Shown: positions 2,422 through 60,425, counted from the first letter of the stretch. The stretch: DNA of 64,000 nt from Acidimicrobiaceae bacterium (GCA_026706815.1 JAPOYA010000017.1:4101-68100), one strand, 5' to 3'. The notes: generated by a model not told the origin, from the letters alone. Translations and numbers: made by a program.

Positions 2422-4181
2422 TGCGCTGGGACGGTCCGGTAGTTTTCGAACAGGATCTGCTCGGCTTCAGGCGTCCATTCTCCCCGTTCCCCCAAGGCTG
2501 CGCCAATATCGGGGAACTGTTCAGCCAGCTCAGCGAGGCCCAGCAGCGGTACCCCGCTCACTTGGGGAAAGATCATGACCTTGCCCGCGAAACGGCCCTG
2601 CATCACTGCTTCGACACCGTCACGGGCCGCCTCAATCCCCCCTATGGCTGCCAGATTCAGCGCCGGGGAAAGCGAGCCGTTCATCGCCTTGTCGAGCACC
2701 AGCGCCTGGTCGCTGATCGCGGAACCCGATGTGCCCGTGTACTGGGCGTTGTGAAGGTAGACACGGCTCATGTCGAGCGGACCCATGGTCCCGTTGGCGA
2801 TGCCCGCGAAGAACACCAGCATCCCGTCGGGGTGCATGAGCCGTGCCGCGTCGGCCATAACCGCAGCTACGGGCACGGTCACGACCACATCGTCTGCGCC
2901 TTCACCATCGGTGAGCCTGCTCACCATCTCCTCGGTGGTCTCATCCGCGGCGCTCGGGTCGAACAACACCAGTGTGCGGTCGGCCTTCTCTGCCAGTGGA
3001 CGCAAAGACGCTTCCAGCACAGCCAGACGAATACCGTCGGGATCGACCCCGATGATGGTGGCCGGGCCGCTGTCGCTCTCGATAGCCCGCTGAATGTGCA
3101 TCTGCCCCATCGGACCGCCGGCCCCGATGAACACGGCGGTTCCCCCCCGGCGCAGGTCACAGCGGTTGCGGGCCTCGCCGTATGCAGCGGTTATGTCAGG
3201 TCCTCGGGTGCCGACATAGGCGGTGTAGTCGTAGTGCAGACGGCCGAAATCGATTTGAGGCAAATCGTCGAGGGGGTGTTGCCCGACGAGATTCAAGGTT
3301 CCCCTGAACGCGATCTGGCGGGCCGCGTTGGTCACCTGCACCGCTGAGCGGGGGTCGAGCAGGATGATGTCGTCGAATCCGGCCCCGCCGGTCATTTGCG
3401 CGGTGAGAGCCTCGTAACCGTCAGGCCCGATCCCGTCGGCGACGATCGTCTCGGTATCAGCGCCGATCGACTCGAGGACTCTCTTATGGACTTCACCAGA
3501 CAGATCGGTCAACACGACAGCAGCAGCATCGGCTATGCACTGGCCGAATTGATAGTCGGTTCGGTCGTTTGGATCGCCGATTATCCAGGTCTTGCCGCCT
3601 GCGAGGGGCTCTAGGCGCCTTCGTTGTGTGTATACGGCTTCTACGCAGGCCCACGGCTCCGACAAGGCCGCCGCCGCGTAGCCGATTTCGTCGTTCACGG
3701 GGATCACATAGGCGCCGTCGTCGGCGTCGAGAACCTCAGGGCCGATCAAGTGGTACTGGATCAGGCCGCCGGGAATCGTGTAGCCGTAGGCCGTGCTGCG
3801 TCCGTCGACGTGAATGTCGGGCTGTATTGCCAGACGGTCCCCCTTGTTGAACTTCGAAGCGAGATCAGAGCCCACCTCGATCACGGTGACCGCTGCCTCA
3901 TGACCGAGCCGGGTCGGCTCCACGGCCAGGTCACGGCCATACAGTTTGGGGTGGTCATTGCCCAGGCGGATGAGTTTCACGTCCGAGAAGCAAAGGCCCA
4001 CTGCGTCGATGCGGACTAGCAGTTGGCCCGGGCCTACTTCGGGAACCTCCATCGCTTCGGGAGAACCGTTGTCGCCCATGCTCTCAAGGCCCGTGCCATA
4101 CATGTTCCAGCCGAGGTTCGGTTCTGGCAGCGCGGTGTCGCCGACACGATAATCGGCGAAGGTCCAGCCTTCGGTGGTCAT
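2418..4181 (-). CDS. Unusually long (587 aa) zinc-type medium-chain dehydrogenase/reductase
   Basis: GroES-like N-domain motifs: VRIDAVGLCFSDVKL and LGHEAAVTVIEVG. A GAGGPMG Rossmann motif appears only about 170 residues after the EPWACV hinge. Start trimmed to ATG 4181 (MTTEGW), preceded by GGAGGAG; the longer track ORF overlaps the upstream gene. Confidence 0.75.
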   Translation of the reverse strand: MTTEGWTFADYRVGDTALPEPNLGWNMYGTGLESMGDNGSPEAMEVPEVGPGQLLVRIDAVGLCFSDVKLIRLGNDHPKLYGRDLAVEPTRLGHEAAVTVIEVGSDLASKFNKGDRLAIQPDIHVDGRSTAYGYTIPGGLIQYHLIGPEVLDADDGAYVIPVNDEIGYAAAALSEPWACVEAVYTQRRRLEPLAGGKTWIIGDPNDRTDYQFGQCIADAAAVVLTDLSGEVHKRVLESIGADTETIVADGIGPDGYEALTAQMTGGAGFDDIILLDPRSAVQVTNAARQIAFRGTLNLVGQHPLDDLPQIDFGRLHYDYTAYVGTRGPDITAAYGEARNRCDLRRGGTAVFIGAGGPMGQMHIQRAIESDSGPATIIGVDPDGIRLAVLEASLRPLAEKADRTLVLFDPSAADETTEEMVSRLTDGEGADDVVVTVPVAAVMADAARLMHPDGMLVFFAGIANGTMGPLDMSRVYLHNAQYTGTSGSAISDQALVLDKAMNGSLSPALNLAAIGGIEAARDGVEAVMQGRFAGKVMIFPQVSGVPLLGLAELAEQFPDIGAALGERGEWTPEAEQILFENYRTVPAH

Positions 4182-5506: not shown

Positions 5507-6037
5507 CTATGAAGATTGTCTCAGAGTCTTGCGGATCGACTTCATCAGCAATACGAGGTGCAGATCGTCGGTGGGCGACGGCTCGAATTCCGGGATCAAG
5601 TGGTGATAGAAATCTTGGGCTTCGGCGCTCTCAGCATGGACCAGCAAACCCCGACAGCCGATCTCGCCGCCTAACGCGGCCGTGCGTTTCAGCACGTCCA
5701 GCAGCAGGCCCGCGCCGAGCCCATGACCTTCATGGTCGATACTGACGCCAAGCCGGGCCAGCAGTGCCACGGGTTGGGGGTAGCGACCAGCGCCCTTTCG
5801 CAACCGCACAGCTGCGTCCGCAATCTGTATCTGCGCCATGCACCATCCGTAATAGGCGACCACATCGAGGCGCTCAGGTTGGGTGACCACAAATATCTTC
5901 GTCGTGCCCATCGCCGTTGACTGGCGCGCGTGCAGTTGTAGCCATTCGGTCTGCTCGTCTGAGCGGCACTCGAAATTCTCGATCAGATGATCGGTAGTGA
6001 GCGGTGTTGGCGGAAGATAGCGCGGGTTATTCGTCAA
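5507..6037 (-). CDS. GNAT-family acetyltransferase toxin (TacT-like)
   Basis: 176 aa with FECRSDEQTEWL, LLARLGVSIDHEGHGLGAGLL and AQDFYHHL (GNAT A/B motifs). It overlaps the upstream DUF1778-type gene by 11 nt. Confidence 0.8.
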   Translation of the reverse strand: MTNNPRYLPPTPLTTDHLIENFECRSDEQTEWLQLHARQSTAMGTTKIFVVTQPERLDVVAYYGWCMAQIQIADAAVRLRKGAGRYPQPVALLARLGVSIDHEGHGLGAGLLLDVLKRTAALGGEIGCRGLLVHAESAEAQDFYHHLIPEFEPSPTDDLHLVLLMKSIRKTLRQSS

Positions 6038-6314
6038 CGAAGGGTGATGGTCGGGCCATCAGGGTCCGCAAGCCGGGGAGGTCTTCAGCGGGGCGGGCAT
6101 TGATTTCTTCCCACACTTTTGCTGCTTCAGCGCTGAGTGTGAATTCGTTGCGGTCAGCTAACACACGGCGAGCAGCTATCGTCAAATGGGTAACGACGAA
6201 CTCGGTGAGCTGGGTGCGGTTAGCGTTCACCGCTCGGTCAATCAGCGCGCGGTCCGCCGGCGTCAACCGGACCTCGATCCTCTCACTGCGCCGCGGGCGT
6301 ATATCGGTAGCCAC
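6027..6314 (-). CDS. DUF1778/RHH antitoxin (TacA-like)
   Basis: RSERIEVRLTPADRALIDRAV...TEFVV is typical of DUF1778. Start trimmed to GTG 6314 (VATDIRP), preceded by AGGAG. Confidence 0.8.
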   Translation of the reverse strand: MATDIRPRRSERIEVRLTPADRALIDRAVNANRTQLTEFVVTHLTIAARRVLADRNEFTLSAEAAKVWEEINARPAEDLPGLRTLMARPSPFVDE

Positions 6315-6337
6315 TGTTCTCCTGCTCACCTCGAGAC

Positions 6338-6359
6338 AATTGTACGGCAATTGTACGGC
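6338..6359. promoter_or_regulatory. Perfect tandem 11-bp repeat (aattgtacggc x2) 24-45 nt upstream of the antitoxin start; candidate TA operator
   Basis: Read directly: caattgtacggcaattgtacggcaa. Confidence 0.4.
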
Positions 6360-6538
6360 AACCGCAACTTGAATGGAAAGGTTGGAGCGAGTGTTTCGAA
6401 CCAAGAATTGGTTCCGTAGTTGCAAGACAGGTTGATTGAGTCCTGAGTGGGTCCCCGTTCCTAGGTGGCTGTGGACGGAGACCGGCTCGGTCCAGAGCGC
6501 GAAACGCGTCTAGGCGGTTTGACCAGTCTGTTATTGGG

Positions 6539-6609
6539 AGCGGGTGACGGGAATCGAACCCGCGTTATCAGCTTGGGAAGCTGATGTTCTGCCATTGAAC
6601 TACACCCGC
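6539..6609 (-). tRNA. tRNA-Gly (anticodon CCC)
   Basis: Reverse complement GCGGGTGTAGTTCAATGGCAGAACATCAGCTTCCCAAGCTGATAACGCGGGTTCGATTCCCGTCACCCGCT folds as a cloverleaf. Anticodon loop is TTCCCAA. CCA is not encoded. Confidence 0.9.
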
Positions 6610-7032: not shown

Positions 7033-7599
7033 GTGATTCTCTCTGACCGCTCGCTGCGTGAACAGCTCGAGAACGGGCGCATCATCATTGATCCGCTCGA
7101 CCCCTCGGCGTTGCAGCCTTCGTCGGTGGATTTGAGGCTCGACCGGTTCTTCCAAGTCTTTCGGAACCACACGATGGGCCATATCGACGTGAAAGCGGAC
7201 CTCAGCGACCTCACCCAGTTGGTCGAGATCTCACAGGACGAATCGTTCATCCTGCATCCCGGCGAGTTCGTGTTGGGCAGCACCCTCGAACGGGTCGCGG
7301 TTCCCGATGATCTCGTGGCGCGTCTCGAGGGGAAGTCGAGCCTGGGGCGGCTGGGCCTGTTGATCCACTCAACGGCGGGTTTTGTCGACGCGGGGTTCGA
7401 CGGGCAGCTGACGCTGGAACTCAGCAACGTCGCCAATCTGCCGATCAAGCTGTATCCCGGCATGAAGATCGGACAGATCTCGTTTCAGCAGATGACCACG
7501 GCCGCGGAGCATCCGTACGGCTCTGATCAGCTTCAATCGAAGTACAAGCACCAGCGTGGCCCCATGCCCAGCCGCTATTGGGAGAACTTCGAGAGCTGA
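7033..7599 (+). CDS. dcd: dCTP deaminase
   Basis: [20 protein letters not shown]...[10 protein letters not shown]...[13 protein letters not shown]...LELSN; 188 aa, GTG start. Confidence 0.9.
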
Positions 7600-7622
7600 G
7601 CCTGACGCCTGAGCCGTGGCGG

Positions 7623-7907
7623 TCAGCGGTATTGGGTCGCGGTGATGATGCCCGCCAGGATCATTCCCAACCCCAGCAGCAGCACTGGATTCGACGTGTC
7701 CCAAAATGAGCCGACGTAGTTGATGATGATCGTCGCGATGCCGACGCCGAGCAGGCCGAACATGAGGATGGGAACCCACTTGGGGCTCGGGGGCATTGTG
7801 TCTTGACCTGTGTGGGACACAGTATCGGGGGTGTATCCGTCGGGTCTGGTTCCTTTGGGGGTGACCCTGCCACCGGACACCCGGCGCTTTGTGGGCTTTT
7901 GGGACAT
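7623..7907 (-). CDS. crgA: Cell division protein CrgA
   Basis: 94 aa with a basic N-terminus (KPTKRRVSGGRVTPKG), SPKWVPILMFGLLGVG and a second TM segment ending TATQYR. This is the CrgA architecture. Confidence 0.8.
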   Translation of the reverse strand: MSQKPTKRRVSGGRVTPKGTRPDGYTPDTVSHTGQDTMPPSPKWVPILMFGLLGVGIATIIINYVGSFWDTSNPVLLLGLGMILAGIITATQYR

Positions 7908-7953
7908 GTGGCAACTCTAGAGGCTCGACGACGTCGGCGGGCCTTCTTTGGGG

Positions 7954-8002
7954 AATCACATGAATGTGATTATCCACGGATTTGCCCACAAGCTGTGGAT
8001 AA
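7954..8002. promoter_or_regulatory. crgA upstream region with an 18-bp palindrome and two inverted DnaA-box-like 9-mers
   Basis: aatcacat-ga-atgtgatt at 7954-7971. TTATCCACG at 7970-7978 (+). TTATCCACA on the minus strand at 7994-8002. Confidence 0.35.
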
Positions 8003-8010
8003 GTCCCGGT

Positions 8011-8262
8011 TCAGTCGACCGGAGCCACCAGATCCATGTCCTCCAGACAGTGCCGGGGAGGCTCCGGATCCTCGTCGGGTGCGACGGTCATACGAACCTC
8101 CGTGCCGCAGATGCTGCAACGGTAGGTGATCTTCACCTTGCGCAGTTCGCCCGCAGGTGGTGGCTCGGGAGCGGGCCGAGCGAGTCCCCGCAGCATCGCC
8201 AACCCGATACGGATGATCAGGAAACCCGCCACCACAGCGATGATCACATTCAACACGTTCAC
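8011..8262 (-). CDS. Small membrane-anchored protein with CxxC...HC zinc-ribbon-like tail
   Basis: 83 aa. N-terminal TM segment (VIIAVVAGFLIIRIGLAML), then YRCSICGTEVRMTV...PRHC. Lies 10 nt downstream of the thiolase-like gene. Confidence 0.5.
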   Translation of the reverse strand: MNVLNVIIAVVAGFLIIRIGLAMLRGLARPAPEPPPAGELRKVKITYRCSICGTEVRMTVAPDEDPEPPRHCLEDMDLVAPVD

Positions 8263-8272
8263 TGCAGCCAGC

Positions 8273-9418
8273 CTAGGTCCGACGCCGCCACAGCGTGACC
8301 GCCGAACCGGTCGGACTGGCGCTTACTGCAGCGACGCACTCGCCGGGGGCCGCGTTCGACACTCCGTCGACGGTCAGACGGAGCTCCTCCGCTGTGCCCG
8401 CGTCCCCGACGCCGAGGGTTCCCCCATCGGGATTGACGGTCGACGGATCAACCTCAAGGCGATGACAAATCGACAACAACCCGGCAGCGGTGCTCTCAAC
8501 TATCTCCCAACGGGCAATGTCAGGTGTGTCAACGCCCGCATGCGAAAGAGCACGCTCAAGGGCCAGTTCCACACCGCCAGTCGCATCCAGAGGACTTCCT
8601 GCAGCGCGTCCAACGCCTAGGACATCGGCGACCGGCGGCCCCTTTGCAGCAGGGCCTCCGCCAGTCAATAGCAGCGCGGCTGCACCATCGGCAGGCGGTG
8701 CGAACGAATACGCAGTGACCGTGCCGTCGGCAACGAACAACGGCGGCAACTCAGAGGGGTTGTCGGCCACCTCTCGGTGCTCGTCGGCGGCAACCGATGT
8801 CCCCCGAACGGCGGTGAGGCGACTACCCGGATGGGCCGCGACCGACAGCAGACAGCGGGCGTCCGCAGCACGGCGGCGCTCGACGCTGCGAGCCGCGGCG
8901 AGATCTTGTTGCACCCGATCAATCCCGAGCAGCCCAGCAGTTGACTCGGCAGCTCTCGGTGGTGGCAGCAAGCCCCCATCGGCCGCGACCCGCGTGGCGG
9001 GACCCTCACCCCACGGCTGTCCGTACACGCGGTTCAAAGCCGAAGCCCCAGGTGCAACAAGCGATGCCACCGACACCCCGACCACGACCACCGTGTCGGC
9101 AGAACCGGACATGATCGCAGCGACCGCGGCATGAAGAGCAGCCGAACCGCTCATCTCCGCCGAGTCGACGACGATCCCGCCGATTCGATCAGACCAACCT
9201 GCGCTGAGAACAGCCGCCCGAGCCATGTTCGCACCCTGCGCGCCGACTGGTTCGGCGCATCCAACCCACACCTCGTCGACCGACTCAGCAGCAACGCCGC
9301 AACGGTGTATCACCTCGTTCATCACCGACGCGCTCAGGTCGACCGGATGCCAACCGGCGAGAGCACCGTCTGTTCCGGTGAACGGGGTTCGGCAGGCAGC
9401 GGCGAGCATGACGGTCAT
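8273..9418 (-). CDS. Thiolase-fold protein, apparently lacking the catalytic triad
   Basis: Thiolase-like order of blocks: GANMARAAVLSAG, VVDSAEMSGSAALHAA, NPDGGTLGVGDAG, VAAVSASPTGSA. Positions expected to be Cys/His/Cys read Glu/Asp/Ser by my manual alignment. Confidence 0.7.
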   Translation of the reverse strand: MTVMLAAACRTPFTGTDGALAGWHPVDLSASVMNEVIHRCGVAAESVDEVWVGCAEPVGAQGANMARAAVLSAGWSDRIGGIVVDSAEMSGSAALHAAVAAIMSGSADTVVVVGVSVASLVAPGASALNRVYGQPWGEGPATRVAADGGLLPPPRAAESTAGLLGIDRVQQDLAAARSVERRRAADARCLLSVAAHPGSRLTAVRGTSVAADEHREVADNPSELPPLFVADGTVTAYSFAPPADGAAALLLTGGGPAAKGPPVADVLGVGRAAGSPLDATGGVELALERALSHAGVDTPDIARWEIVESTAAGLLSICHRLEVDPSTVNPDGGTLGVGDAGTAEELRLTVDGVSNAAPGECVAAVSASPTGSAVTLWRRRT

Positions 9419-9522
9419 TGCGAGAGTCTTCTACACTGAACGGCACTCGGGCAGCCATCAGGCTTGGACCCGACGATTCTCACACGAAACGCGCTCATAC
9501 CGGAACACAAAAGGGGAACGCA

Positions 9523-10136: not shown

Positions 10137-10391
10137 ATGATAATTCCGCCGTTCGATCGACTTGCGGAGGTACGACTTATCGCTGGATACCAATGGAACT
10201 CGACGACACATGAGATCGGCCCGGCGGTTCTGTCCCTTCGTGATGGCTTGGACAATGTTCTCTGGATGATTGAACTGCTTGAACCGGTCGATGGAAGCTC
10301 TGTCATGCCCATCGCGGATTCGAAAACACCAGAACCGCCGACCATCGAGTTCTCGGATGTACCGGTCAGAGAAACGAAGGCAAGCGAATAG
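10137..10391 (+). CDS. Hypothetical 84-aa protein, stop overlapping the start of the XRE-ImmA/IrrE gene
   Basis: ORF in a visibly lower-G+C patch. Its TAG (10389-10391) shares a G with the GTG at 10391. No recognisable motif and no clear RBS. Confidence 0.3.
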   Translation: MIIPPFDRLAEVRLIAGYQWNSTTHEIGPAVLSLRDGLDNVLWMIELLEPVDGSSVMPIADSKTPEPPTIEFSDVPVRETKASE

Positions 10392-11431
10392 TGGGGATAG
10401 GCGAGGCGATCGCGATGGCCCGGCGTGCCCGTGGTCTCACACAGGGATTGCTGGCTGAACGCTTGGGGATAACGCAGGCGGCCCTGTCTCGGTATGAGAA
10501 CGAACTGCGAGATCCAACTGATGATGCCCTTGATCAAATTGCTTCGACTCTCGGAGTGCTGCCCGAACTCTTGAGCCAAGCTGACCGTATGGAAGGAGCT
10601 CTCGCCGTTGGAGCTCATATGCGACGACGGGCTACAGCCAAGCCGACCGTGTGGCGTCGTCTTGAAGCCCAGTTGAATCTTCACCGGCTCCACGCACAAC
10701 GTCTTTTTGACGAGTTGGACCTGCGAACCGAACTAACTATCCCTTGGCTTGATCCGTTCGAATACGAACCGACGACGGCCGCCCGTCTCTTGCGAATGCA
10801 GTGGCGTATGCCCAGCGGCCCGGTGAGAGATCTTGTGGGGTGGATGGAATCCGCCGGTTGTCTGATCATCGACACAGACTTCGGAACATCCCGAGTCGAC
10901 GGACTCTCTCAATGGAGCGGCACTTACCCAGTCGTGATGCTCAACCTCTCCGCGCCGACCGACCGTCGTCGGCTGACCTTGGCCCATGAGCTGGGGCACC
11001 TGTGCCTCCATAGCCAAGGGGTACCCGACGATGTCGAAGCCGACGCCACCGCTTTTGCTGCTGAGTTCCTGTTGCCCGAAGAGACGATTCGGCCCCAGTT
11101 GCGCAACCTCACTGTTGGTCGGCTGCACGACCTCAAACGTTTGTGGGGGGTGTCAATGCAGGCTCTAATCGAACGATCCCACGAATTGGGAGTCATCACT
11201 TCCAGGGAGCGAACCAACTTTTATAAGAGGTTTAGCGCGCTGGGTTGGCGGACTCGTGAGCCTTTGAGTGACGAACTAGCACAAGAGCGTCCCCGTTTGG
11301 CGGCGGAGATCGGCAGAGCACTGCTCGCTCGCGGCCATAACAAAAGTGAGGCCGCAAGGATCTGTGGTTACACCGTTGACAACCCTGACAATCCCTTCAT
11401 CGTCGACAAGCACCAGCTGCGATTGGTGTGA
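10391..11431 (+). CDS. Fused XRE-family HTH / ImmA-IrrE (COG2856, M78-like) metallopeptidase
   Basis: N-terminal IGEAIAMARRARGLTQGLLAERLGITQAALSRYENE (XRE HTH). HEXXH occurs as LAHELGHLCLH with a downstream EFLLPEE. Confidence 0.8.
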   Translation: MGIGEAIAMARRARGLTQGLLAERLGITQAALSRYENELRDPTDDALDQIASTLGVLPELLSQADRMEGALAVGAHMRRRATAKPTVWRRLEAQLNLHRLHAQRLFDELDLRTELTIPWLDPFEYEPTTAARLLRMQWRMPSGPVRDLVGWMESAGCLIIDTDFGTSRVDGLSQWSGTYPVVMLNLSAPTDRRRLTLAHELGHLCLHSQGVPDDVEADATAFAAEFLLPEETIRPQLRNLTVGRLHDLKRLWGVSMQALIERSHELGVITSRERTNFYKRFSALGWRTREPLSDELAQERPRLAAEIGRALLARGHNKSEAARICGYTVDNPDNPFIVDKHQLRLV

Positions 11432-15777: not shown

Positions 15778-17322
15778 ATGTATCCCGGCCACAATGCAAA
15801 GACGACACCCGACAAACCAGCCGTCATCATGGCCGGCTCCGGCGAGTCGGTCAGCTACCGCCAACTCGACGAGGCTTCGAATCGGTTGACCCATTGGCTC
15901 TTCGCCCAAGGGCTGAGAGCGGGTGACCACATAGCGATCCTGGCCGAGAACAGCCCGCGTTACTTCGAGGTGTATTGGGCGGCTCTGCGCTCGGGGCTCT
16001 ACATCACCGCCATCAACCGCTTCCTGTCCCCCGAAGAAGCGGCCTACATCGTCAACGACAGCAACTCGACCGTGCTTGTGACGACCTCGGCGATGGCTGA
16101 GACCGCAGCCAGCATGGCCGAGATGATCCCTCAGTGTTCCAAGCGCCTGATGATGAACGGAACGATCGACGGTTTTGACTCCTACGAAGACGCCGTTGCG
16201 GGGATGCCCGCAGAAAGGCTCGAAGACCAGCCGGCCGGTGACGTGATGCTCTATTCCTCTGGAACCACAGGCCGGCCGAAAGGAGTCAAACGGAAGTTGA
16301 GCGGCCTGCAGATCGACGATCCGGAACGGGTGTCCTTGACCATGCTTCTGCGACATCTGCTGGGCATGGATCACACTTCCCTGTACCTCTCGCCGGCACC
16401 GCTGTATCACTCGGCCCCGCTGCAGTGGTGCGCCGGGATCCACGAACTCGGCGGCACCGTCGTGGTGATGGAGAAGTTTGACGCGGCGAAGTTCCTCGAG
16501 TACGTCGAGCGCTATTCGATCAGGGAAACTCAGGTTGTGCCGACCATGTTCGTGCGCATGCTCAAGCTCCCCGAAGAGGTGCGCACCGGCTATGACCTGT
16601 CGTCGCTGAACATGTGCATCCACGCGGCGGCGCCTTGCCCGGTGCCAGTGAAGGATCAGATGATCCAGTGGTGGGGTCCGATCATCAACGAGTACTACGC
16701 CGGGACCGAGGGCAACGGGTTCTGTTTCATCACCAGCGAGGAATGGCTTGAGCACAAGGGCTCGGTGGGGAAGTCCGCGATCGGCATTCCCCACGTCTGC
16801 GACGACGAAGGCAACGAACTCCCGACCGGGGAGGCCGGGTTGATCTACTTTGAACAGGACATATCGGCGTTCGAATACCACCGAGATCCGGAGAAGACCG
16901 CCGAGTCGAGACATCCGCAACACCAGAGCTGGTCGAAGCTCGGTGACATCGGCTATCTTGACGAGGACGGGTACCTCTATCTGACGGATCGCTCAGCGTT
17001 CATGATCATCAGCGGCGGGGTGAACATCTACCCCCAAGAGATCGAAGCGTGCTTCGCTCTGCATCCGAAGGTCGCCGATGTGGCAGTGTTCGGTTTGCCC
17101 GACCCGGAGATGGGCGAGTACGTCCACGCAGTCGTACAGCCCGAGGCTGGGTTGGAGCCGTCGGACGAGCTCGCCGAAGAGCTTCGGTCTTTCGCACGCG
17201 GTGAGATCGCGCATTACAAGGTGCCCCGTGTGATCGATTTCCGAGCGGAGCTGCCGCGGCTGCCGACCGGGAAGCTCTACAAGAAGCCCCTCCGCCAAGA
17301 ATACCTGGACCGCGAAACCTAA
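15778..17322 (+). CDS. AMP-dependent acyl-CoA synthetase/ligase (FadD-like)
   Basis: MLYSSGTTGRPKGV, YYAGTEG, GDIGYLDEDGYLYLTDR and the C-terminal PTGKLYKK. Confidence 0.85.
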   Translation: MYPGHNAKTTPDKPAVIMAGSGESVSYRQLDEASNRLTHWLFAQGLRAGDHIAILAENSPRYFEVYWAALRSGLYITAINRFLSPEEAAYIVNDSNSTVLVTTSAMAETAASMAEMIPQCSKRLMMNGTIDGFDSYEDAVAGMPAERLEDQPAGDVMLYSSGTTGRPKGVKRKLSGLQIDDPERVSLTMLLRHLLGMDHTSLYLSPAPLYHSAPLQWCAGIHELGGTVVVMEKFDAAKFLEYVERYSIRETQVVPTMFVRMLKLPEEVRTGYDLSSLNMCIHAAAPCPVPVKDQMIQWWGPIINEYYAGTEGNGFCFITSEEWLEHKGSVGKSAIGIPHVCDDEGNELPTGEAGLIYFEQDISAFEYHRDPEKTAESRHPQHQSWSKLGDIGYLDEDGYLYLTDRSAFMIISGGVNIYPQEIEACFALHPKVADVAVFGLPDPEMGEYVHAVVQPEAGLEPSDELAEELRSFARGEIAHYKVPRVIDFRAELPRLPTGKLYKKPLRQEYLDRET

Positions 17323-17352
17323 ACATCCGAACCCGCAAAACCCCTGGAGTGG
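17311..17352. repeat. Left copy of a 42-bp direct repeat (putative attL); includes the last 3 codons plus TAA of the acyl-CoA synthetase
   Basis: cgcgaaacctaaacatccgaacccgcaaaacccctggagtgg is 41/42 identical to 19405-19446. Confidence 0.9.
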
Positions 17353-17530
17353 GGGTATCGCGACCCCTCTGTGCCTGGGGGTTTAGAGAGGTGGTTCTAG
17401 TTTCTCCATATTCGTTGAGCCTGACGACAGACATCGCGAGAAGGCTAATTCGCTTGTTTTGGCGGCTTGAGCTGCGGGTTCGCAACCGACAGCGATTCGG
17501 CTTCCCCGGTGACTCATCCATTGCCGCCGA

Positions 17531-18208
17531 TCAGCGGGCATTGACGGTTCCCGAGTCGCCTCCATATTCGTGAAGGGTGTCTTGATAGTCGTTGACGTTC
17601 CGGAAACGCCAATATCTACAGCGCGGGTTCTTGTCTGGTTGTTTCAGCGACCGCTTACCCTTACGATTCTCGGCCAGGATCAGCTCGGCGGAGTAGGCGC
17701 GGAGAGGGATCGGATCGGCGTGGAGGAGTTGAGGAAGTTCGACGAGGTCTGGTTCGGGCCAGAGCGGGTCACCGATGTTGATGTCGATGTGGAAGTGGAG
17801 CTTCGCCCGGTCGAGCTGTCCGGTGACCGTTGCGCGGATTCCCGGATAGGAAGCGTCGTCGCGGATCTCCTCCACCTTGGCGATGGCCAGTTGGTTGAGG
17901 CCGTCATCGAGGTTCACGTTCACGATGTCGGCGACGATGCTTGCGATGGCGGCGAGGTCGCCGTCGACGTCGGTTCCGACTAGGTCGATGTCGCGGGTTG
18001 GTCGTCTCTCGGTGTAGGCGGCGAGCAGAACACCTCCTTTGAGGACGAATGTTGCGGCGTGGTCGGTTTCGACGAGGCGGCGGAGGAAGCCTTCGAGCGC
18101 GTAGAACTGGAAGAGTTCGTCGACTGGTCGGCCTGTGGCGCGGGCGACGGCTTGGAGGTCGAGATAGGCAGCGCCCGCGGTTGTGTTTCGGCTCGGTTGG
18201 GGGCTCAT
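17531..18208 (-). CDS. abiEii: AbiEii/AbiGii-family nucleotidyltransferase toxin (type IV TA), possibly C-terminally truncated
   Basis: FVLKGGVLLAAY..RPTRDIDLVG is the nucleotidyltransferase motif, followed by HFHIDINIGDP. It is 225 aa, and the tail after LILAE looks degenerate. ATGA overlap with abiEi. Confidence 0.75.
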   Translation of the reverse strand: MSPQPSRNTTAGAAYLDLQAVARATGRPVDELFQFYALEGFLRRLVETDHAATFVLKGGVLLAAYTERRPTRDIDLVGTDVDGDLAAIASIVADIVNVNLDDGLNQLAIAKVEEIRDDASYPGIRATVTGQLDRAKLHFHIDINIGDPLWPEPDLVELPQLLHADPIPLRAYSAELILAENRKGKRSLKQPDKNPRCRYWRFRNVNDYQDTLHEYGGDSGTVNAR

Positions 18209-18789
18209 TGAAGGGTTTCGATTGCGGCCCGAAGTGCTGGCATGGCGCGCGGAAACGATCTGGCTAGTTCCAGGAGCTCTGAGGGATGGTTGCCGCGTTG
18301 GTTGAGCCAGCGGCGTAGGGCTGTGTGTGCGAGGTCGATGCCGAGCCGATGACGGAGGCGGTAGGTGTCGATGATCGAGCGCGCCGGGCTGTAGATGGCG
18401 ATGGTGATCGTGTCGACGAGGTGAAGGTCGTCGCGTCCGATGTAGAAGGTGTCACGGTCGAACCGATGCCAGGTGACGGGAGCCCGTGTCTTCGGCTGCC
18501 AGTGGTGACGCGGCAAGGCGGCGTCGATTGTGTGGGGGATCTCGTCGGTGAGGCTGTGGTGAGCGAGGGCGGTCGTGAGGCAGAGGGTGGTGCGAGGGTT
18601 GCGCAGAGCTAGCTCGAGAAGGTCTGGGTCGGCACCGTGTCCGGCGCGGGCGTAGATACCGCGCGCAATGCGGTCCAGGTCGCCTTGGGCGGTCAGCTTC
18701 GCGAGGTCGCGGTCCGAGATCCCGAGGTCGCGGGCCTCGGCGCGCGTAAACGCGACCGGAATGGTTGCGGGGGACATGTATGAAATCAT
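18205..18789 (-). CDS. abiEi: AbiEi-family antitoxin / transcriptional regulator
   Basis: 194 aa. FTRAEARDLGISDRDLAKLTAQGDLDRIARGIYA is a winged-HTH N-domain typical of AbiEi. Its stop overlaps the abiEii start. Confidence 0.8.
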   Translation of the reverse strand: MISYMSPATIPVAFTRAEARDLGISDRDLAKLTAQGDLDRIARGIYARAGHGADPDLLELALRNPRTTLCLTTALAHHSLTDEIPHTIDAALPRHHWQPKTRAPVTWHRFDRDTFYIGRDDLHLVDTITIAIYSPARSIIDTYRLRHRLGIDLAHTALRRWLNQRGNHPSELLELARSFPRAMPALRAAIETLQ

Positions 18790-18930
18790 AGCCAGAAGGT
18801 GCCTATGTGGCTATGAATTGATTCGCGATGCGGGCATCGGCCGACCGGAGCCGTCCTGGCCTTCGCGGCCCGCGGCTGCGGCGGCGCGCTCAATGTTGCT
18901 CGGTGCTGCCCCGGAAGTCCTAATAACCTC

Positions 18931-18948
18931 GTGTAAACATGTTTGCAC
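18931..18948. promoter_or_regulatory. Imperfect 18-bp palindrome gtgtaaacatgtttgcac in the divergent abiEi / unknown-ORF intergenic region
   Basis: Read directly. One mismatch between the 9-bp arms. It overlaps the most upstream possible start (TTG 18943) of the unknown ORF. Confidence 0.3.
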
Positions 18949-19452
18949 GGGGATCGACGCGCACTCGAAACTGTCGTGGAGAGAATTACCACGCTTGATT
19001 TGGTGGCGGTTGCATCGACAAACTCAGCTTGTCGCTATGCGTTGGGTAATCCCGACAAACAGTTCGATCCTGTTTGGTCTGCCGTGTTTTTTGATGTGGC
19101 GACCAGCCTCACAGAACTTGCCAAAACCGCAAGAGACTACGACGCTCTTCCTGACGAGCACCTGGCACTTGATGGAACTATTCGTGAACTTGTGGCTGCT
19201 GCAACAACCGACGACCTTGTAGAGACACTCGACTCTTTTGAATTTGGTGACGAACGTCGAGAGTTTTTTGATTCGGTCATCGCTGTGTACGCCAACGTTG
19301 CCGCGACACTGAACAACGAAACAGTGTTGGTTGGTTGCCCGCCGACGCTTTTTCGAACCAAAAACCGCGAATTCCGGCCTGAAACCGGCTGTTTTCGGTT
19401 AACTCGCGAAACCCAAACATCCGAACCCGCAAAACCCCTGGAGTGGAGCTGA
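18943..19452 (+). CDS. Hypothetical acidic protein (up to 169 aa), cargo of the mini-island
   Basis: ORF in the lower-G+C stretch with a protein-like composition (..LTELAKTARDYDALPDEHLALDGTIRELVAAATTDDLVETLDSFEFGDERREFFDSVIAVYANV..). Its 3' end runs through the right repeat and stops inside tRNA-Ala. Start uncertain. Confidence 0.35.
   Translation: MHGDRRALETVVERITTLDLVAVASTNSACRYALGNPDKQFDPVWSAVFFDVATSLTELAKTARDYDALPDEHLALDGTIRELVAAATTDDLVETLDSFEFGDERREFFDSVIAVYANVAATLNNETVLVGCPPTLFRTKNREFRPETGCFRLTRETQTSEPAKPLEWS
19405..19446. repeat. Right copy of the 42-bp direct repeat (putative attR); overlaps the last 3 nt of tRNA-Ala
   Basis: cgcgaaacccaaacatccgaacccgcaaaacccctggagtgg. The single mismatch turns the TAA of copy 1 into CAA. 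Confidence 0.9.
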
Positions 19453-19517
19453 CGGGAATCGAACCCGTGACCTCCTGCTTGCAAAGCAGGCGCTCTAGCC
19501 AACTGAGCTACAGCCCC
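19444..19517 (-). tRNA. tRNA-Ala (anticodon TGC)
   Basis: Reverse complement GGGGCTGTAGCTCAGTTGGCTAGAGCGCCTGCTTTGCAAGCAGGAGGTCACGGGTTCGATTCCCGTCAGCTCCA. G3:U70 pair is present. Anticodon loop is TTTGCAA. CCA is not encoded. Confidence 0.9.
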
Positions 19518-19609: not shown

Positions 19610-20887
19610 ATGGAATCACGGGCTCTCAAAACCAATTCGATGGACGACTTTGACCTGCGGATGTCGGAGGAGTCCCGCCCCTTCTTCGAGGCAGTCGTCG
19701 AGTTCCTCGAAGCGGTCGTGGACCCGATGCAGGCAGAGTTCTTCGCCGCTGGTGAAGGACGAGCCGACCGTTGGAGCTACACCGAACGCCAGCTTGAACT
19801 GTTGGAGGGCGCCAAGGACCAGGCCAAGGAGAAAGGCCTGTGGAACTTCTTCCTGCCAGACACCGGTCAGGGCCTGTCGAACCTCGACTACGCCTATTTG
19901 GCTGTCGAACTGGGCAAATACCCACTCGGATCGGAGTCGCTCAACTGTTCGGCGCCAGACACCGGCAACATGGAAGTCCTCGAACGAGTGGGCACCCCCG
20001 AACAGAAGCAACAGTGGCTCGAACCGCTCCTGAACGGCGAGATCCGCTCCTGTTTCGGCATGACCGAACCGGGCGTCGCCTCCTCCGACGCCAAGAACGT
20101 GCGCTGCCAAGCCGTGCGAGACGGTGACGAATACGTGATCAACGGCGAGAAGTACTACATCTCCGGCGCCGGAGACCCGCGTTGCAAAATCATGATTCTG
20201 ATGTGCCAGACAAGTCCCGACGGGCCGCCGCATCGACGCCAGTCGCAGATCCTGGTGCCGATGGACGCCCCTGGCCTTGAGATCCTCGGCCCAATGCATG
20301 TCTTCGGTCAAGACGACGCACCCCACGGCCACATGCACCTGCGCCTCACCGATGTGCGAGTGCCCGTCGGCAACATGTTGTGGGGCGAAGGCCGAGGATT
20401 CGAAATCTCACAACTCCGCCTCGGCCCGGGCCGCATCCACCACTGCATGCGGGGCATCGGAGCCGCCGAGAAAGCTCTTGACCTGATGTGCCGCCGCGGA
20501 CTGGCACGTGAGGCATTCGGCAAGCCGCTCGCCCGGCTCGGCGGCAACACCGAGATCATCGCCCGAGCCCGCACCGAGATCGAAGCCATGCGGATGATGG
20601 TGCTGCGGGCCGCGAAAGCCATGGACACCCTCGGCAACGCCGAAGCAAGGGTGTGGATCAGCGCAGTCAAAGCCCTGGTTCCCGAACGAGTCTGCAAGAT
20701 CATCGACCAAGCCATCCAGATGCATGGTGCAACCGGTGTGTCGCAGTGGACGCCTTTGGCCGGGATGTATCAGAGCCAGCGCACGCTGCGCCTCGCCGAC
20801 GGCCCCGACGAGGTTCACTGGATGGTCGTCGGACGCTCCGAACTTGCCAGCTACGAGGGTCTGGAAGTGCCAGCCTCGTCGGCATGA
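19610..20887 (+). CDS. Acyl-CoA dehydrogenase
   Basis: CFGMTEPGVASSDA, YISGAGDPRC, and HGATGVS near the C-terminus. Start is ATG 19610 or 19640; the track ORF start at 19568 is less likely. Confidence 0.85.
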   Translation: MESRALKTNSMDDFDLRMSEESRPFFEAVVEFLEAVVDPMQAEFFAAGEGRADRWSYTERQLELLEGAKDQAKEKGLWNFFLPDTGQGLSNLDYAYLAVELGKYPLGSESLNCSAPDTGNMEVLERVGTPEQKQQWLEPLLNGEIRSCFGMTEPGVASSDAKNVRCQAVRDGDEYVINGEKYYISGAGDPRCKIMILMCQTSPDGPPHRRQSQILVPMDAPGLEILGPMHVFGQDDAPHGHMHLRLTDVRVPVGNMLWGEGRGFEISQLRLGPGRIHHCMRGIGAAEKALDLMCRRGLAREAFGKPLARLGGNTEIIARARTEIEAMRMMVLRAAKAMDTLGNAEARVWISAVKALVPERVCKIIDQAIQMHGATGVSQWTPLAGMYQSQRTLRLADGPDEVHWMVVGRSELASYEGLEVPASSA

Positions 20888-33520: not shown

Positions 33521-33552
33521 TTGCATGAAATATTCATGCTAGATTCATGCAA
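33521..33552. promoter_or_regulatory. AT-rich operator-like region with three GCATGAA/TTCATGC half-sites, abutting the vapB start
   Basis: ttGCATGAAataTTCATGCtagaTTCATGCaATG. Confidence 0.45.
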
Positions 33553-33785
33553 TGGCCAATCTTCAGGTCAGGAACATGTCCGATGTCCTTCACGAGCGTC
33601 TGCGCCAACACGCTCGCGAGCGGAATTGCACCATGAGCGCAGCGGTGCTCGAAGCGATTGAAAGGGAACTTGCCCGGTGGGAGTGGAACAAGCACCTTGC
33701 GAATCGGCCAACGACGGACCTGGGCATTGATGTTGCATCGCTGATCGCCGAAGTGCGGGAGACCCGCGACTCAGAGCTCGAATGA
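33552..33785 (+). CDS. vapB: Ribbon-helix-helix antitoxin (VapB/FitA-like)
   Basis: MANLQVRNMSDVLHERLRQHARERNCTMSAAVLEAIE is an RHH fold pattern. Its stop overlaps the vapC start. Confidence 0.75.
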   Translation: MANLQVRNMSDVLHERLRQHARERNCTMSAAVLEAIERELARWEWNKHLANRPTTDLGIDVASLIAEVRETRDSELE

Positions 33786-34183
33786 CCGGCTACGTGATCG
33801 ACGCCTCAGTGGCGGTCGAATATCTTCTGCGAACGCCGCTGGGAATCACGCTTGCTGACACGATCGAAAACGCATCATTGGCAGCCCCCGAGTTGATTGA
33901 CCCAGAAGTGATGTCGGTATTGCGGCGAGCGGTGCTCACAGGACGTCTTGAGGATTCAAGAGCCGAGATGGCGCTGAGCGATCTGGCCATCTGGCCTATC
34001 GATCGTATCTCACATCAAGCACTCGCCTTGTCAGCGTGGCAGTACTACCGCAACACCAGTGCCTATGACGCCTTCTATATTGCAGTCGCCCGCACCAGAG
34101 GACTCCCGTTGTTGACTGCAGACGGACGACTTGCGAGATCGACCGGTCTCGATATCACCGTCCACCACGTTCAAATCAGCTGA
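33782..34183 (+). CDS. vapC: PIN-domain toxin
   Basis: GYVIDASVAVEYLL, the acidic residues PELIDPEV, AYDAFYIAVA and LLTADGRL; 133 aa. Confidence 0.85.
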   Translation: MTGYVIDASVAVEYLLRTPLGITLADTIENASLAAPELIDPEVMSVLRRAVLTGRLEDSRAEMALSDLAIWPIDRISHQALALSAWQYYRNTSAYDAFYIAVARTRGLPLLTADGRLARSTGLDITVHHVQIS

Positions 34184-36380: not shown

Positions 36381-36506
36381 ACGCGCGATACTACCAATCT
36401 ATTCATCGCTATGCAATAAATAATAATCACTATACGCCGTCATAGGTGACACGGGGCACATTGGACACGCTGGAGTTCCCGTCGGCTATTTCGGGTTGTC
36501 GATACG

Positions 36507-36593
36507 CGGAAGGTATGGGATTCGAACCCATGGTGACCCGGAGGCCACAACGGCTTTCGAGGCCGCCCCATTCGTCCGCTCTGGCAACCTTCC
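36507..36593 (-). tRNA. tRNA-Ser (anticodon CGA)
   Basis: Reverse complement GGAAGGTTGCCAGAGCGGACGAATGGGGCGGCCTCGAAAGCCGTTGTGGCCTCCGGGTCACCATGGGTTCGAATCCCATACCTTCCG. It has a long variable arm, and the anticodon loop is CTCGAAA. Confidence 0.9.
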
Positions 36594-40844: not shown

Positions 40845-40870
40845 GAGGCCCACCCTCAGGGGTGGGCCTC
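40845..40870 (-). terminator. Perfect 11-bp-stem hairpin (gaggcccaccc-tcag-gggtgggcctc) enclosing the NYN gene stop codon
   Basis: Read directly. There is no clear U-tract after it on the minus strand. Confidence 0.4.
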
Positions 40871-60180: not shown

Positions 60181-60425
60181 CCAAGTAGCAAGTCCGCGCT
60201 TGAAGCACGCTCGACTCCGGGTCGACTTGCGATTGAAGCGAGTCTGGCGTCGAGCCGACCTGCATGGGAGCCTCCGGTTGCCGACACAACGCTTCGGCAC
60301 AGTCGAACCAGATAGAGATTGGTTGTGGCTGGTTCATGATCGACGAGCACTTGCGTCAACCCGTCGCTCAACTCACCGGAAAGCAGGTCGCGCAGGAGAT
60401 GGTCGTCGAGGACCGTTCGACTCAC
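60099..60425 (-). CDS. Putative toxin partner of the AbrB-type antitoxin (PIN-like N-terminus?), possibly degenerate
   Basis: The GTG overlaps the antitoxin stop (GTGA). The N-terminus TVLDDHLLRDLL...TTNLYLVRLCR looks protein-like, the C-terminal half does not. It overlaps the SnoaL 3' end by 82 nt in antisense. Confidence 0.35.
   Translation of the reverse strand: MSRTVLDDHLLRDLLSGELSDGLTQVLVDHEPATTNLYLVRLCRSVVSATGGSHAGRLDARLASIASRPGVERASSADLLLGQSRMPKGVRAVRASGEAWVKKTAESQ

Follow-up and report, generated by a model that had tools for sequence, protein, structure and literature searches.

In Escherichia coli, 18 of 41 integration hotspots lie within tRNA loci, and hotspot #37 carries no detectable MGE in 68% of its occupied cases (PMC10121019); the core defence hotspots of Pseudomonas aeruginosa offer a further system for comparison (PMC10250203). 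CIMEs are without integration and transfer genes and keep both att sites (PMC5704250). AbiEii, the toxin of the AbiE type IV TA system, is a DUF1814 NTase in which motifs I–IV are all required for toxicity, motif IV being needed for both GTP binding and toxicity (Dy et al. 2014, PMC3985639).

The present study concerns a 64,000-nucleotide stretch of DNA (the window; Acidimicrobiaceae bacterium, GCA_026706815.1, JAPOYA010000017.1:4101–68100), in which a 42-bp near-perfect direct repeat brackets a short segment beside a tRNA-Ala gene. The initial annotation took the two copies for an attL/attR pair. What stands of that proposal is that the repeat is real and brackets horizontally acquired DNA without a recombinase; what speaks against it is that the left edge falls at a gene-fusion breakpoint, that the repeat lies mostly outside the tRNA, and that no empty site, second element, or recombinase was found in the sequences searched. 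Our analysis instead suggests, with a probability of roughly 0.52, that a core-gene-flanked hotspot here contains a decayed, non-autonomous remnant of 2.05 kb and that illegitimate recombination left the repeat as a scar, so that it is not a recombinase-site pair.

Results

The 42-bp repeat and its surroundings

The repeat and the genes that border it are as follows.

15778–17322, plus strand: core acyl-CoA synthetase, AMP-binding, 514 aa (Pfam AMP-binding and AMP-binding_C)
17311–17352, plus strand: repeat copy 1, the derived copy, which differs from copy 2 and contig L094 at position 10 (T instead of C)
19405–19446, plus strand: repeat copy 2, the source copy, contiguous with segment d (the tRNA-side flank) and tRNA-Ala, as in L094
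19443–19517, minus strand: intact tRNA-Ala(TGC) (ARAGORN; Rfam 19444–19517, 76 bits)
19610–20887, plus strand: core acyl-CoA dehydrogenase (ACAD), right-flank anchor (Pfam)

The repeat search agreed with the initial annotation on the position and quality of the direct repeat, CGCGAAACC[T/C]AAACATCCGAACCCGCAAAACCCCTGGAGTGG, whose copies at 17311–17352 and 19405–19446 are 41/42 identical and lie 2,052 bp apart. Several further details given there were borne out. Copy 1 reads cgc gaa acc taa, the R-E-T-stop that ends the 514-aa AMP-binding synthetase at 15778–17322, and so holds the last three codons and the TAA of that gene; the single mismatch turns this TAA into CAA in copy 2; and copy 2 covers the last 3 nt of the tRNA-Ala(TGC) gene (C71, C72, and A73), or 4 nt by the ARAGORN end. 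Most of the repeat is downstream spacer, with 38 nt outside the tRNA and only 3–4 nt (19443/19444–19446) within it.

Only these two copies occur in the whole 64-kb window when three mismatches are allowed, and chance matches are not expected (0 in 100 shuffles). A 20-nt core of the repeat had no true match among 185,579 species genomes except in one related MAG contig, L094, and none in JGI metagenomes or IMG/VR; a 32-mer likewise had no true match in genome, metagenome, and viral contigs beyond L094. The check for further copies that the initial annotation proposed thus shows that the repeat is not dispersed, and a REP-like element is ruled out, since the only site outside the window is the orthologous one in L094. 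An IS or transposon with a target-site duplication was also rejected: no transposase was detected by Pfam or PADLOC, and the DNA immediately inward of the repeat copies has no terminal inverted repeats. To our knowledge, 42 bp far exceeds known target-site duplications.

One could suppose that the structure is an assembly artefact, or that a dispersed REP-like repeat fell at both sites by chance. The Logan k=31 assembly of SRR10996932 does break where the repeat is exact over 32 bp, one of its contigs (L082) ending in copy 1 and another (L086) consisting of the island alone. However, three ENA assemblies from different accessions (ERZ23496111 scaffold_360, ERZ23499944 scaffold_5863, and ERZ27276918 k141_96399) run through both copies into unique flanking sequence, all at 100% identity, and the structure is therefore not an assembly artefact. 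In addition, a repeat of 42 bp is shorter than a read, and the two copies in 64 kb, where none is expected, have no unrelated counterparts in public collections. The window repeat count, the ENA assemblies, and the public-collection searches together refute this explanation, to which we give next to no weight.

A mosaic interior with a truncated abiEii

The 2,052 bp between the copies are a mosaic of a 314-bp orphan segment, a 1,203-bp abiE module, 434 bp of low-GC DNA, and 101 bp of tRNA-side flank.

17353–17666, no strand: segment a, 314 bp, orphan DNA, GC 0.56
17531–18208, minus strand: abiEii pseudogene, residues 1–180 homologous (DNA 17667–18208)
18205–18789, minus strand: abiEi, antitoxin and autorepressor, 194 aa (Pfam AbiEi_4, PF13338; PADLOC AbiEi positions 6–192 of 195)
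18780–18869, minus strand: putative abiE promoter/operator, with an inverted repeat (18780–18794/18808–18822) and a sigma-70-like site
18870–19303, no strand: segment c, 434 bp, low-GC (0.53) orphan DNA
18976–19452, plus strand: 158-aa ORF through segment c, probably not a gene
19304–19404, no strand: segment d, 101 bp, tRNA-side flank, ~95% identical to L094 (JAPPMP010000044.1)

Pfam and PADLOC, run on the three ORFs and on the ORF of segment a, agree with the initial description of the interior as abiEii, abiEi, and one other ORF without a recombinase, and found no transposase and no integration or transfer genes; nor did the interior match phages or plasmids. That abiEii is truncated and that the third ORF has no homologue are observations beyond the first description. 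AbiEi, with an N-terminal wHTH and a C-terminal domain, is full length (the same length as its homologues in L178–L183) and lies upstream of abiEii, which it overlaps by 4 nt (18205–18208). Homology in abiEii ends at about residue 180 of 283 in the alignment, and the PADLOC AbiEii match covers profile positions 11–179 of 294; the closest homologues are 283 aa long and, although 92% identical, align with only 80% of the query. Motifs I–III are present and motif IV (RWRDFVD) is absent. Because ~103 C-terminal residues that include this motif have been lost, the toxin is predicted to be inactive, and abiEi probably persists as an orphan autorepressor. The 45 unrelated codons that now end the truncated abiEii are encoded by segment a, which contains a 17-mer twice (17403 and 17559), has no similarity to the fetched loci, plasmids, phages, or Rfam by blastn or tblastx, and has an ORF without a Pfam match.

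Only 17667–18869 of the interior, the last position being the upstream limit of homology, corresponds to intact 1.6-kb abiE modules, which sit at unrelated loci in other sponge-associated Acidimicrobiia. The nucleotide identity is 93% between genomes whose synthetases are only ~60% identical as proteins, and by this measure the module is clearly exchanged between lineages and was acquired horizontally. The 158-aa ORF has no homologue among 5.8 billion proteins and no Pfam or PADLOC match, its GC3 is 0.48 against ~0.75 for window genes, and a 1-nt indel separates its 3′ part from the L094 sequence; a genuine gene here is improbable. Of the options raised in the initial annotation, a decayed larger island is the one that fits an interior that is mosaic and an abiEii that is truncated.

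A variable interval between conserved borders

The tRNA-Ala gene is the right-hand conserved border of a variable interval and adjoins the ACAD gene in 13 relatives; ACAD is 96–98% identical (aa) in Ca. Aldehydirespiratoraceae MAGs. The distance from synthetase to tRNA-Ala is 2.1 kb in the window, ~2.0 kb in L091, 4.9 kb in L092, 6.0 kb in L116, 7.4 kb in L088, and 9.1 kb in L089. Ancestral genes for a TPP enzyme, a fatty-acid hydroxylase, and a P450 are common to the relatives' intervals, and all three have been lost in the window genome. Into these intervals the relatives have received TA/defence-like inserts, including HipA, an NTase-HTH (NTP_transf_2+HTH) protein, and a DUF4143 AAA ATPase accompanied by a 1,387-aa protein. 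The insert of L090 comprises an SF1 helicase and an AAA+/S8 peptidase pair, and an integrase-less 8.8-kb block at the same tRNA has at its ends a 24-bp repeat, 21 nt of which belong to the tRNA 3′ end. Among the ORFs scanned in the relatives' intervals, which were the larger ones, the only mobility-related sequences were IS fragments in L094, and no integrase was present. The same conserved flanks thus enclose differing content that is rich in TA/defence cargo, often without mobility genes, and on this comparison the locus is best read as a lineage-wide variable hotspot bordered by the synthetase and tRNA-Ala(TGC)-ACAD.

On the tRNA side, the window is ~95% identical to L094 from 19304 through the tRNA into ACAD (to 19619), and L094 has segment d and the 42-mer directly beside tRNA-Ala, with C at the mismatch position. 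Among the 185,579 species genomes, a 27-mer from segment d occurs only in L094. Because segment d is missing from L116, a relative at least as close as L094, it could itself be accessory, element-derived DNA.

The left repeat copy begins at a fusion breakpoint

Orthologues of the synthetase in the relatives share 86–92% aa identity with it and end natively in ...LDRLTGD* (...SLAGD* in L116). DNA homology to the window stops exactly at 17313 in L025 and in each of the five relatives that have a synthetase orthologue (L116, L088, L089, L091, and L092); past this point the window runs on with the 42-mer, of which only CGC, the first 3 nt, is common to the native synthetase sequence. The last two sense codons and stop (17314–17322) are therefore not native, E-T-TAA being supplied by copy 1. 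Since the relatives end in LDRLTGD* and homology stops at 17313, copy 1 is a secondary copy of the last 39–42 nt of the tRNA-side flank, fused onto the synthetase four codons ahead of the native stop at a 3-nt CGC microhomology, and not a native integration target. Because L094 has C at the mismatch position, the T in copy 1, which provides the new TAA stop, appears to be derived. These observations also bear on the empty site that the initial annotation had rebuilt as synthetase stop, about 30 nt, and tRNA: that arrangement is not ancestral, and the relatives hold the TPP enzyme, fatty-acid hydroxylase, and P450 genes in its place. An empty site (synthetase–42-mer–tRNA) was sought among the 13 relatives with tRNA-Ala-ACAD, four other same-strain assemblies, and flanking-protein look-ups, with strain-level sampling thin, and none was seen.

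The left edge of the repeat hence coincides with the synthetase fusion breakpoint, a coincidence that identity between unrelated attP and attB sites does not predict. A CIME-like origin, which we regard as possible but unlikely, would make the 42-mers true attL and attR sites produced by recombinase-mediated integration of a larger element just downstream of tRNA-Ala, with the integrase and the distal part of abiEii deleted later; the remnant could then still excise or be mobilised in trans by a cognate recombinase elsewhere. Such an origin would account for a near-perfect direct repeat that brackets foreign DNA and abuts the tRNA 3′ end, for an interior decayed as expected of a CIME (definition in PMC5704250), for the patchiness of segment d (in L094, not in L116) as that of an element arm, and for the T of copy 1 and the C of copy 2 as attB and attP origins without an extra mutation, and the block in L090 shows that repeat-flanked, integrase-less blocks arise at this tRNA. 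Yet the identity block begins exactly at the breakpoint (17311–17313), which is a coincidence unless one event made both; a repeat with 3–4 nt in the tRNA and the rest in lineage-specific spacer would serve a transferable element badly as a target; no relative shows the site into which integration would have occurred, namely a truncated synthetase joined to the flank; and every assembly found carries the filled allele at 100% identity. Moreover, apart from the L094 contig, the 42-mer has no other site in the 185,579 species genomes, JGI metagenomes, or IMG/VR, and the 20-nt core and 32-mer searches of genome, metagenome, and viral contigs gave no cognate functional ICE/IME with the same att site and no second element carrying the 42-mer. 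The tyrosine and serine recombinases that the initial annotation suggested looking for yielded no candidate among the ORFs scanned in the window and the relatives' intervals; outside ~7.8–26.9 kb, the window was covered by ORF translations read by eye and ten Pfam-scanned ORFs, with none evident.

The breakpoint coincidence would be explained by a Campbell-type insertion, in which a circle from a related strain, ordered (a)-abiE-(c)-(d)-42-mer, recombined through short flank homology without a site-specific enzyme and duplicated 42 bp, the recipient synthetase having already been fused to the 38-nt flank by an earlier deletion; identity would then reach left only as far as the recipient had kept the flank. 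The exchange of abiE between lineages fits such an insertion, as does the entry of foreign flank DNA into the locus, evident in L088 from a relative's synthetase fragments. This route nevertheless demands three separate events (the prior deletion, a circle closing exactly at the third/fourth nucleotide of the tRNA, and RecA recombination over ~42 bp), and none of the genomes seen showed a donor arrangement, a circle, or the recipient state. We consider it improbable, and clearly less likely than a CIME-like origin.

Discussion

Collectively, these results favour the reading of the repeat as the scar of illegitimate, microhomology-mediated recombination, which would mean that its copies are not a pair of recombinase sites. 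This reading is favoured because the relatives' homology ends exactly where the 42-mer begins; because copy 2 and segment d also lie beside the tRNA in L094, with C at the mismatch; because the interior is mosaic and its abiEii is without motif IV; because the interval is a hotspot with varied inserts and no integrase among the ORFs scanned; and because the repeat and segment d are unique beyond L094 in the collections searched and no recombinase is evident in the window. A precedent at the locus is provided by L088, where an 88-bp internal synthetase fragment lies 1 kb downstream of that genome's own synthetase, is closer to the L092 allele (95%) than to its own (92%), and adjoins a 58-bp duplicate. 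The scar could have formed by a local duplication joined at GTGG|GGGTATC, after which a deletion started in the 3′ end of the synthetase and reached into the first copy, or by a deletion whose repair used the nearby flank as template for a short copy.

Several points weaken this reading. The duplication-plus-deletion path takes two events and a point mutation, none directly observable; site-specific integration classically leaves a direct repeat around foreign DNA at a tRNA 3′ end, and in L090 this tRNA has clearly undergone such an event; L116 does not have segment d; the T-left/C-right mismatch is equally compatible with attB/attP origin; and the absence of an integrase was judged partly by eye in the window and on the larger ORFs in the relatives. 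Public data, from few samples, contain the filled allele only, and on these the cassette would be stable and not mobile at present. Exchange of hotspot content probably relies for the most part on recombination, homologous or illegitimate, with the conserved flanks as anchors. On the scar reading the finding is an ordinary one, a dead abiE remnant in a highly variable interval bounded by a core gene and a tRNA gene. A more far-reaching idea, that the 42-mer is a functional site outside tRNA-Ala at which an unlinked recombinase shuttles minimal, recombinase-less TA/defence cassettes in sponge symbionts, strikes us as slightly less probable even than the Campbell-type route; if true, the window would be a CIME-like system with its target outside the tRNA, caught decayed, and the L090 8.8-kb block a second example of the same turnover.

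Compared with classical tRNA-targeting islands, which use a tyrosine integrase, the locus shares the position at a tRNA 3′ end, the foreign cargo, and the flanking direct repeats. In such islands a tyrosine or serine recombinase gene sits inside the element, usually beside one att site, and integration restores the tRNA because the repeat is its 3′ portion. In contrast to them, the window has no internal recombinase, 3–4 nt of its repeat are tRNA (against 21 of 24 nt in L090) so that the repeat is not the tRNA 3′ portion, the displaced copy is fused to a truncated gene instead of being preceded by native flank, and the relatives examined have no empty site. The locus resembles a CIME in being a short, recombinase-less segment with direct repeats beside a tRNA 3′ end and internal decay, but differs in having its repeat outside the tRNA gene, with the left edge at a gene-fusion breakpoint, and in that no cognate ICE/IME with the same att was found. 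Like the hotspots of E. coli and P. aeruginosa, it has conserved borders, content that differs per genome, and TA/defence-rich cargo often without recognisable mobility genes; unlike them, it lies in uncultivated sponge-associated Acidimicrobiia, the window cargo is a dead remnant, and one of the border genes has been cut short and given a new end by duplicated flank DNA. Finally, the module matches AbiE type IV TA systems (PMC3985639) in its bicistronic abiEi-abiEii order, its stop/start overlap, its full-length wHTH AbiEi, its predicted upstream inverted-repeat operator, and its NTase motifs I–III, and departs from them in the shortened C terminus of abiEii; its closest intact counterparts (92% aa identity) occupy other loci in other genera.

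The repeat pair and the DNA it encloses

Two copies of a 42-mer, CGCGAAACC[T/C]AAACATCCGAACCCGCAAAACCCCTGGAGTGG, lie in direct orientation at 17311–17352 and 19405–19446 and are identical at 41 of 42 positions; the sequence and a repeat search of the window reproduce the pair as described in the initial annotation. They are the only copies in the 64-kb window at up to three mismatches, and none appeared in 100 shuffles. Copy 1 contributes the terminal R-E-T-TAA of an acyl-CoA synthetase, and the last 3–4 nt of tRNA-Ala(TGC) fall inside copy 2 by ARAGORN and Rfam, in agreement with the overlap claimed earlier. Also as claimed, the copies enclose 2,052 bp with three ORFs, abiEii, abiEi, and one other, none of them a recombinase by Pfam or PADLOC. 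The features are as follows.

15778–17322, acyl-CoA synthetase, AMP-binding, 514 aa
17311–17352, repeat copy 1
17531–18208, minus strand, abiEii
18205–18789, minus strand, abiEi
18976–19452, plus strand, third interior ORF
19405–19446, repeat copy 2
19443–19517 (ARAGORN) or 19444–19517 (Rfam, 76 bits), minus strand, tRNA-Ala(TGC)

The repeat pair is a correct observation and not an assembly artefact: the window is 100% identical to scaffold_360 of ENA assembly ERZ23496111, and two more ENA assemblies cross both copies at 100% identity. The Logan k=31 assembly is interrupted at the 32-bp exact core of the repeat, as expected for a repeat that long at this k. A contig from one of those ENA assemblies, ERZ23499944 scaffold_5863, matches the window identically over the island and the tRNA and loses all similarity 10 nt upstream of the 5′ end of tRNA-Ala; its divergent end of 55 nt (positions 1–55), found at no other place in the window or among the fetched loci, represents either a strain-level rearrangement on the side of the acyl-CoA dehydrogenase (ACAD) or a chimeric contig end.

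The possibility raised earlier that the 42-mer is a dispersed REP-like element was rejected by searches of the window, genomes, and viruses, there being two window copies and no unrelated copies in the collections. A 32-mer of the repeat had zero matches in 185,579 species genomes, and the 42-mer had none in IMG/VR. The sole true match to a 20-nt core common to both copies and a related metagenome-assembled contig, L094 (JAPPMP010000044.1), was the L094 contig, the remaining seven matches sharing merely an 18-mer. Xer/dif-type or transposon-type ends were likewise rejected, as no inverted repeats lie at or inside the copies, and a T-arm-like stretch past copy 1 (GGGTATCGCGACCCC), considered as a pseudo-tRNA fragment, was dropped for want of any tRNA-like match at E ≤ 1.

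Copy 1 is probably a graft onto the synthetase gene

Comparison with relatives, through which alone copy 1 is recognized as grafted onto the neighboring gene, separates the histories of the two copies. Synthetases of the relatives all end in ...LDRLTGD* (...SLAGD* in locus L116), and their blastn homology to the window ends exactly at 17313, the repeat beginning at 17311. The native synthetase and the repeat share CGC only, and E-T-TAA from the repeat substitutes for the last four native codons and stop. On the other side, the window from 19304 through the tRNA into ACAD is ~95% identical to L094, where copy 2, with the 101 bp on its left, likewise abuts tRNA-Ala. Because L094 holds this arrangement by tRNA-Ala with a C at the mismatch position, copy 2 is the source; copy 1 would then be the derived duplicate, and its TAA would derive from CAA. 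The locus adds a case of a core gene whose stop codon was newly supplied by duplicated flank DNA, and the “exact empty site” that the initial annotation reconstructed from the two copies does not represent the ancestral arrangement.

Empty sites were sought by looking up the exact synthetase, AbiEi, ACAD, dtd, and ferredoxin proteins in a 153-billion-gene index, by searching JGI metagenomes with the 20-mer, and by retrieving orthologous loci via synthetase and ACAD. None was found in these searches, which yielded sites that were filled or filled differently; the exact-protein look-ups returned the filled allele only.

In L094 the synthetase is absent within 10 kb. Immediately to the left of the shared flank (segment d below) are an IS110-family (Transposase_20) ORF (7845–8819) and the N-terminal part of an IS256/Mutator-family transposase (9124–9474). 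IS-mediated rearrangement has reshaped the hotspot in this genome.

A variable hotspot between conserved borders

The window organism is a sponge-associated member of the Acidimicrobiia whose nearest relatives are Ca. Aldehydirespiratoraceae MAGs, with ACAD at 96–98% aa identity. In five related loci (L088, L089, L091, L092, and L116) the borders are conserved, with synthetase on one side and tRNA-Ala–ACAD–ELFV–Fer4–RF3 on the other, while the interval from synthetase to tRNA measures ~7.4, 9.1, 2.0, 4.9, and 6.0 kb, respectively. Three genes common to this interval, encoding a TPP enzyme, a fatty-acid hydroxylase-like protein, and a P450, appear to be ancestral to it. The differing inserts, toxin–antitoxin (TA) or defense-like in kind, comprise a HipA-family toxin (L088 and L092), an NTP-transferase/HTH protein (L116), and a DUF4143 AAA ATPase with a 1,387-aa protein (L089), and no integrase was found among the ORFs scanned in the relatives' intervals. 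The synthetase–tRNA-Ala locus is a variable hotspot with conserved gene borders.

Two of the fetched loci carry repeats of their own. In L090 (OZ242337.1), a perfect 24-bp direct repeat (167–190 and 8984–9007), 21 nt of which are the tRNA-Ala 3′ end, encloses an 8.8-kb block encoding a 912-aa SF1 helicase and an AAA+ ATPase with S8 peptidase; the left copy is preceded by native flank, and no integrase occurs among the block's ORFs of ≥100 aa. This looks like a classical tRNA integration whose recombinase was lost or is located elsewhere. In L088 (OZ240616.1), an 88-bp fragment from inside the synthetase gene has a second copy 1 kb downstream (2165–2252 versus 3462–3549) that is nearer the L092 allele (95%) than L088's own (92%); immediately after it comes a 58-bp duplicate of sequence from elsewhere in the interval (3552–3609 versus 8298–8355). 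These fragments suggest imported flank DNA of a relative and patchy recombination at the hotspot.

TA genes occur outside this interval as well. In a sister sample with identical dtd (ERZ23496922 scaffold_4536, 736–1321), a HicA-like toxin (weak Pfam match) and a 129-aa partner sit between dtd and synthetase, where the window has a gap of merely 460 bp; this is strain-level TA turnover one gene from the repeat-bounded stretch. TA-type genes also sit immediately 3′ of the window's other two tRNAs: a TacA antitoxin (6027–6425) and a weak GNAT match below the Pfam cut-off (5507–6037) adjoin tRNA-Gly(CCC) in region 5507–6609, and a Fic/DOC protein (35136–36380) adjoins tRNA-Ser(CGA) in region 35136–36593. 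Neither site has convincing flanking repeats or an integrase. Scattered TA/defense-like genes include an HTH and M78 (ImmA/IrrE-like) protein, a FitA-like/PIN pair, an NYN-domain protein, and a MazE-like antitoxin beside a 108-aa ORF (10391–11431, 33552–34183, 40856–41581, and 60099–60661), and these sponge symbionts appear to be rich in such modules.

The interior is a mosaic

Four segments make up the interior.

a, 17353–17666, 314 bp, orphan DNA, GC 0.56
b, 17667–18869, 1,203 bp, abiE module
c, 18870–19303, 434 bp, orphan DNA, GC 0.53
d, 19304–19404, 101 bp, tRNA-side flank common to the window and L094

At the DNA level, segment b shares 93% identity with intact ~1.6-kb abiE modules located at unrelated loci of other sponge Acidimicrobiia, including Ca. 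Poriferisodalis, where the neighbors are GmrSD, type III R-M, and SMC-like ATPase genes, or an IS630-type transposase with tRNA-Leu 50 nt away. In the latter case (ERZ25069482 contig_2, 7263–8988), an IS630-type DDE_3 transposase gene lies just upstream of an intact abiE that is 93% identical to the window's and stops 50 nt from the tRNA-Leu(AAG) 3′ end, so the same abiE lineage recurs near tRNA 3′ ends across genomes. In the window, abiEii is truncated past residue ~180 of 283, retaining motifs I–III and lacking motif IV (RWRDFVD), without which Streptococcus agalactiae AbiEii neither binds GTP nor is toxic (PMC3985639). The truncated 225-aa product is predicted to be harmless, and a repaired 283-aa form to be toxic and neutralized by AbiEi. 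The antitoxin gene, abiEi, has its full length and still has an operator-like inverted repeat upstream.

Segments a and c show no similarity to fetched loci, plasmids, phages, or Rfam by blastn, tblastx, Pfam, and Rfam, and an origin as remnants of the relatives' genes, an IS, a phage, or a plasmid was rejected. The ORF at 18976–19452, running through segments c and d, was rejected as a real gene: a search of 5.8 billion proteins gave no homologue, GC3 is 0.48, and L094 does not keep the reading frame. Segment d was not found beyond L094, and the restriction of a 27-mer from it to that contig led us to reject the idea that it terminates a repeated mobile element.

Two smaller matches were observed. 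A 17-mer, TCTCCATATTCGTKRAG, occurs twice in segment a (17403–17419 and 17559–17575, 16/17 identical, 156 bp apart) and nowhere else in the window, two matches arising in just 1 of 100 shuffles. A perfect 15-nt inverted match, GATCCTGGCCGAGAA, pairs 15936–15950 (the AILAEN codons of the synthetase) with 17667–17681, the final 15 nt of abiEii homology before the truncation point. This 15-mer is native to both genes, and two abiE-module 15-mers in all match elsewhere in the window; chance is an unlikely reason (roughly 0.2–1.5%) for it to fall precisely on the breakpoint, and no rearrangement explaining it was reconstructable from the sequences.

A rearrangement scar or a pair of att sites

On its left, the repeat begins within 3 nt of the breakpoint of the synthetase fusion, at the CGC microhomology. 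Such agreement is expected if a single illegitimate-recombination event made the junction, and would be a coincidence if the repeat were an independent attP/attB identity. We therefore favor, at roughly even odds (about 0.5), the repeat being a scar of illegitimate recombination. A local duplication joined at GTGG|GGGTATC might have been followed by a deletion that extended from the 3′ end of the synthetase gene as far as the first copy's interior, or a deletion might have been repaired by templated copying of nearby flank; in either version, a subsequent C-to-T change would have created the new stop. The window must have lost the three ancestral genes and distal abiEii, and short partial flank duplications occur elsewhere in the hotspot, as the 88-bp and 58-bp examples in L088 attest.

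The main rival, which we consider doubtful, holds that the copies are true att sites left by an old integration, as in a cis-mobilizable element (CIME). The hypothetical attB-like junction would then read synthetase...GACCGCGAAACC[T/C]AAACA...CTGGAGTGG|AGCTGACGGG (tRNA), and the attP-like junction ...GGTTAACT|42-mer|GGGTATCGCGACC. The tRNA location, the L090 precedent, and the patchy distribution of segment d, missing from L116, are consistent with such an origin, which nevertheless leaves the breakpoint coincidence unexplained and must contend with a repeat positioned outside the tRNA and with searches that found no cognate element or recombinase and no empty sites. Within the window, no recombinase that might act in trans was seen in Pfam tables covering ~7.8–26.9 kb or among the other ORFs, which were inspected by eye with ten Pfam-checked, a weaker scan than a full HMM search. 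A Campbell-type insertion, by homologous recombination via a short flank, seems improbable. The observation in the initial annotation stands, and its interpretation holds in part.

The locus is mainly a warning that a clean direct repeat beside a tRNA can be a rearrangement scar rather than an att pair. It also documents, for sponge-associated Acidimicrobiia (Ca. Aldehydirespiratoraceae), a TA/defense hotspot with a core gene on one side and tRNA-Ala on the other; the feature type is known, and this further instance leaves current understanding unchanged. Its abiE pair belongs to the AbiE family in degenerate form and is an added example of toxin-first decay in such a module. In form, the locus is like the CIMEs described previously (PMC5704250), and the membership tests that were run went against placing it among them. 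Defense hotspots flanked by core genes have reportedly been described in Pseudomonas aeruginosa. In Escherichia coli, many occupied sites of such hotspots lack identifiable mobility genes (PMC10121019), and the window locus behaves like the hotspots of both species.
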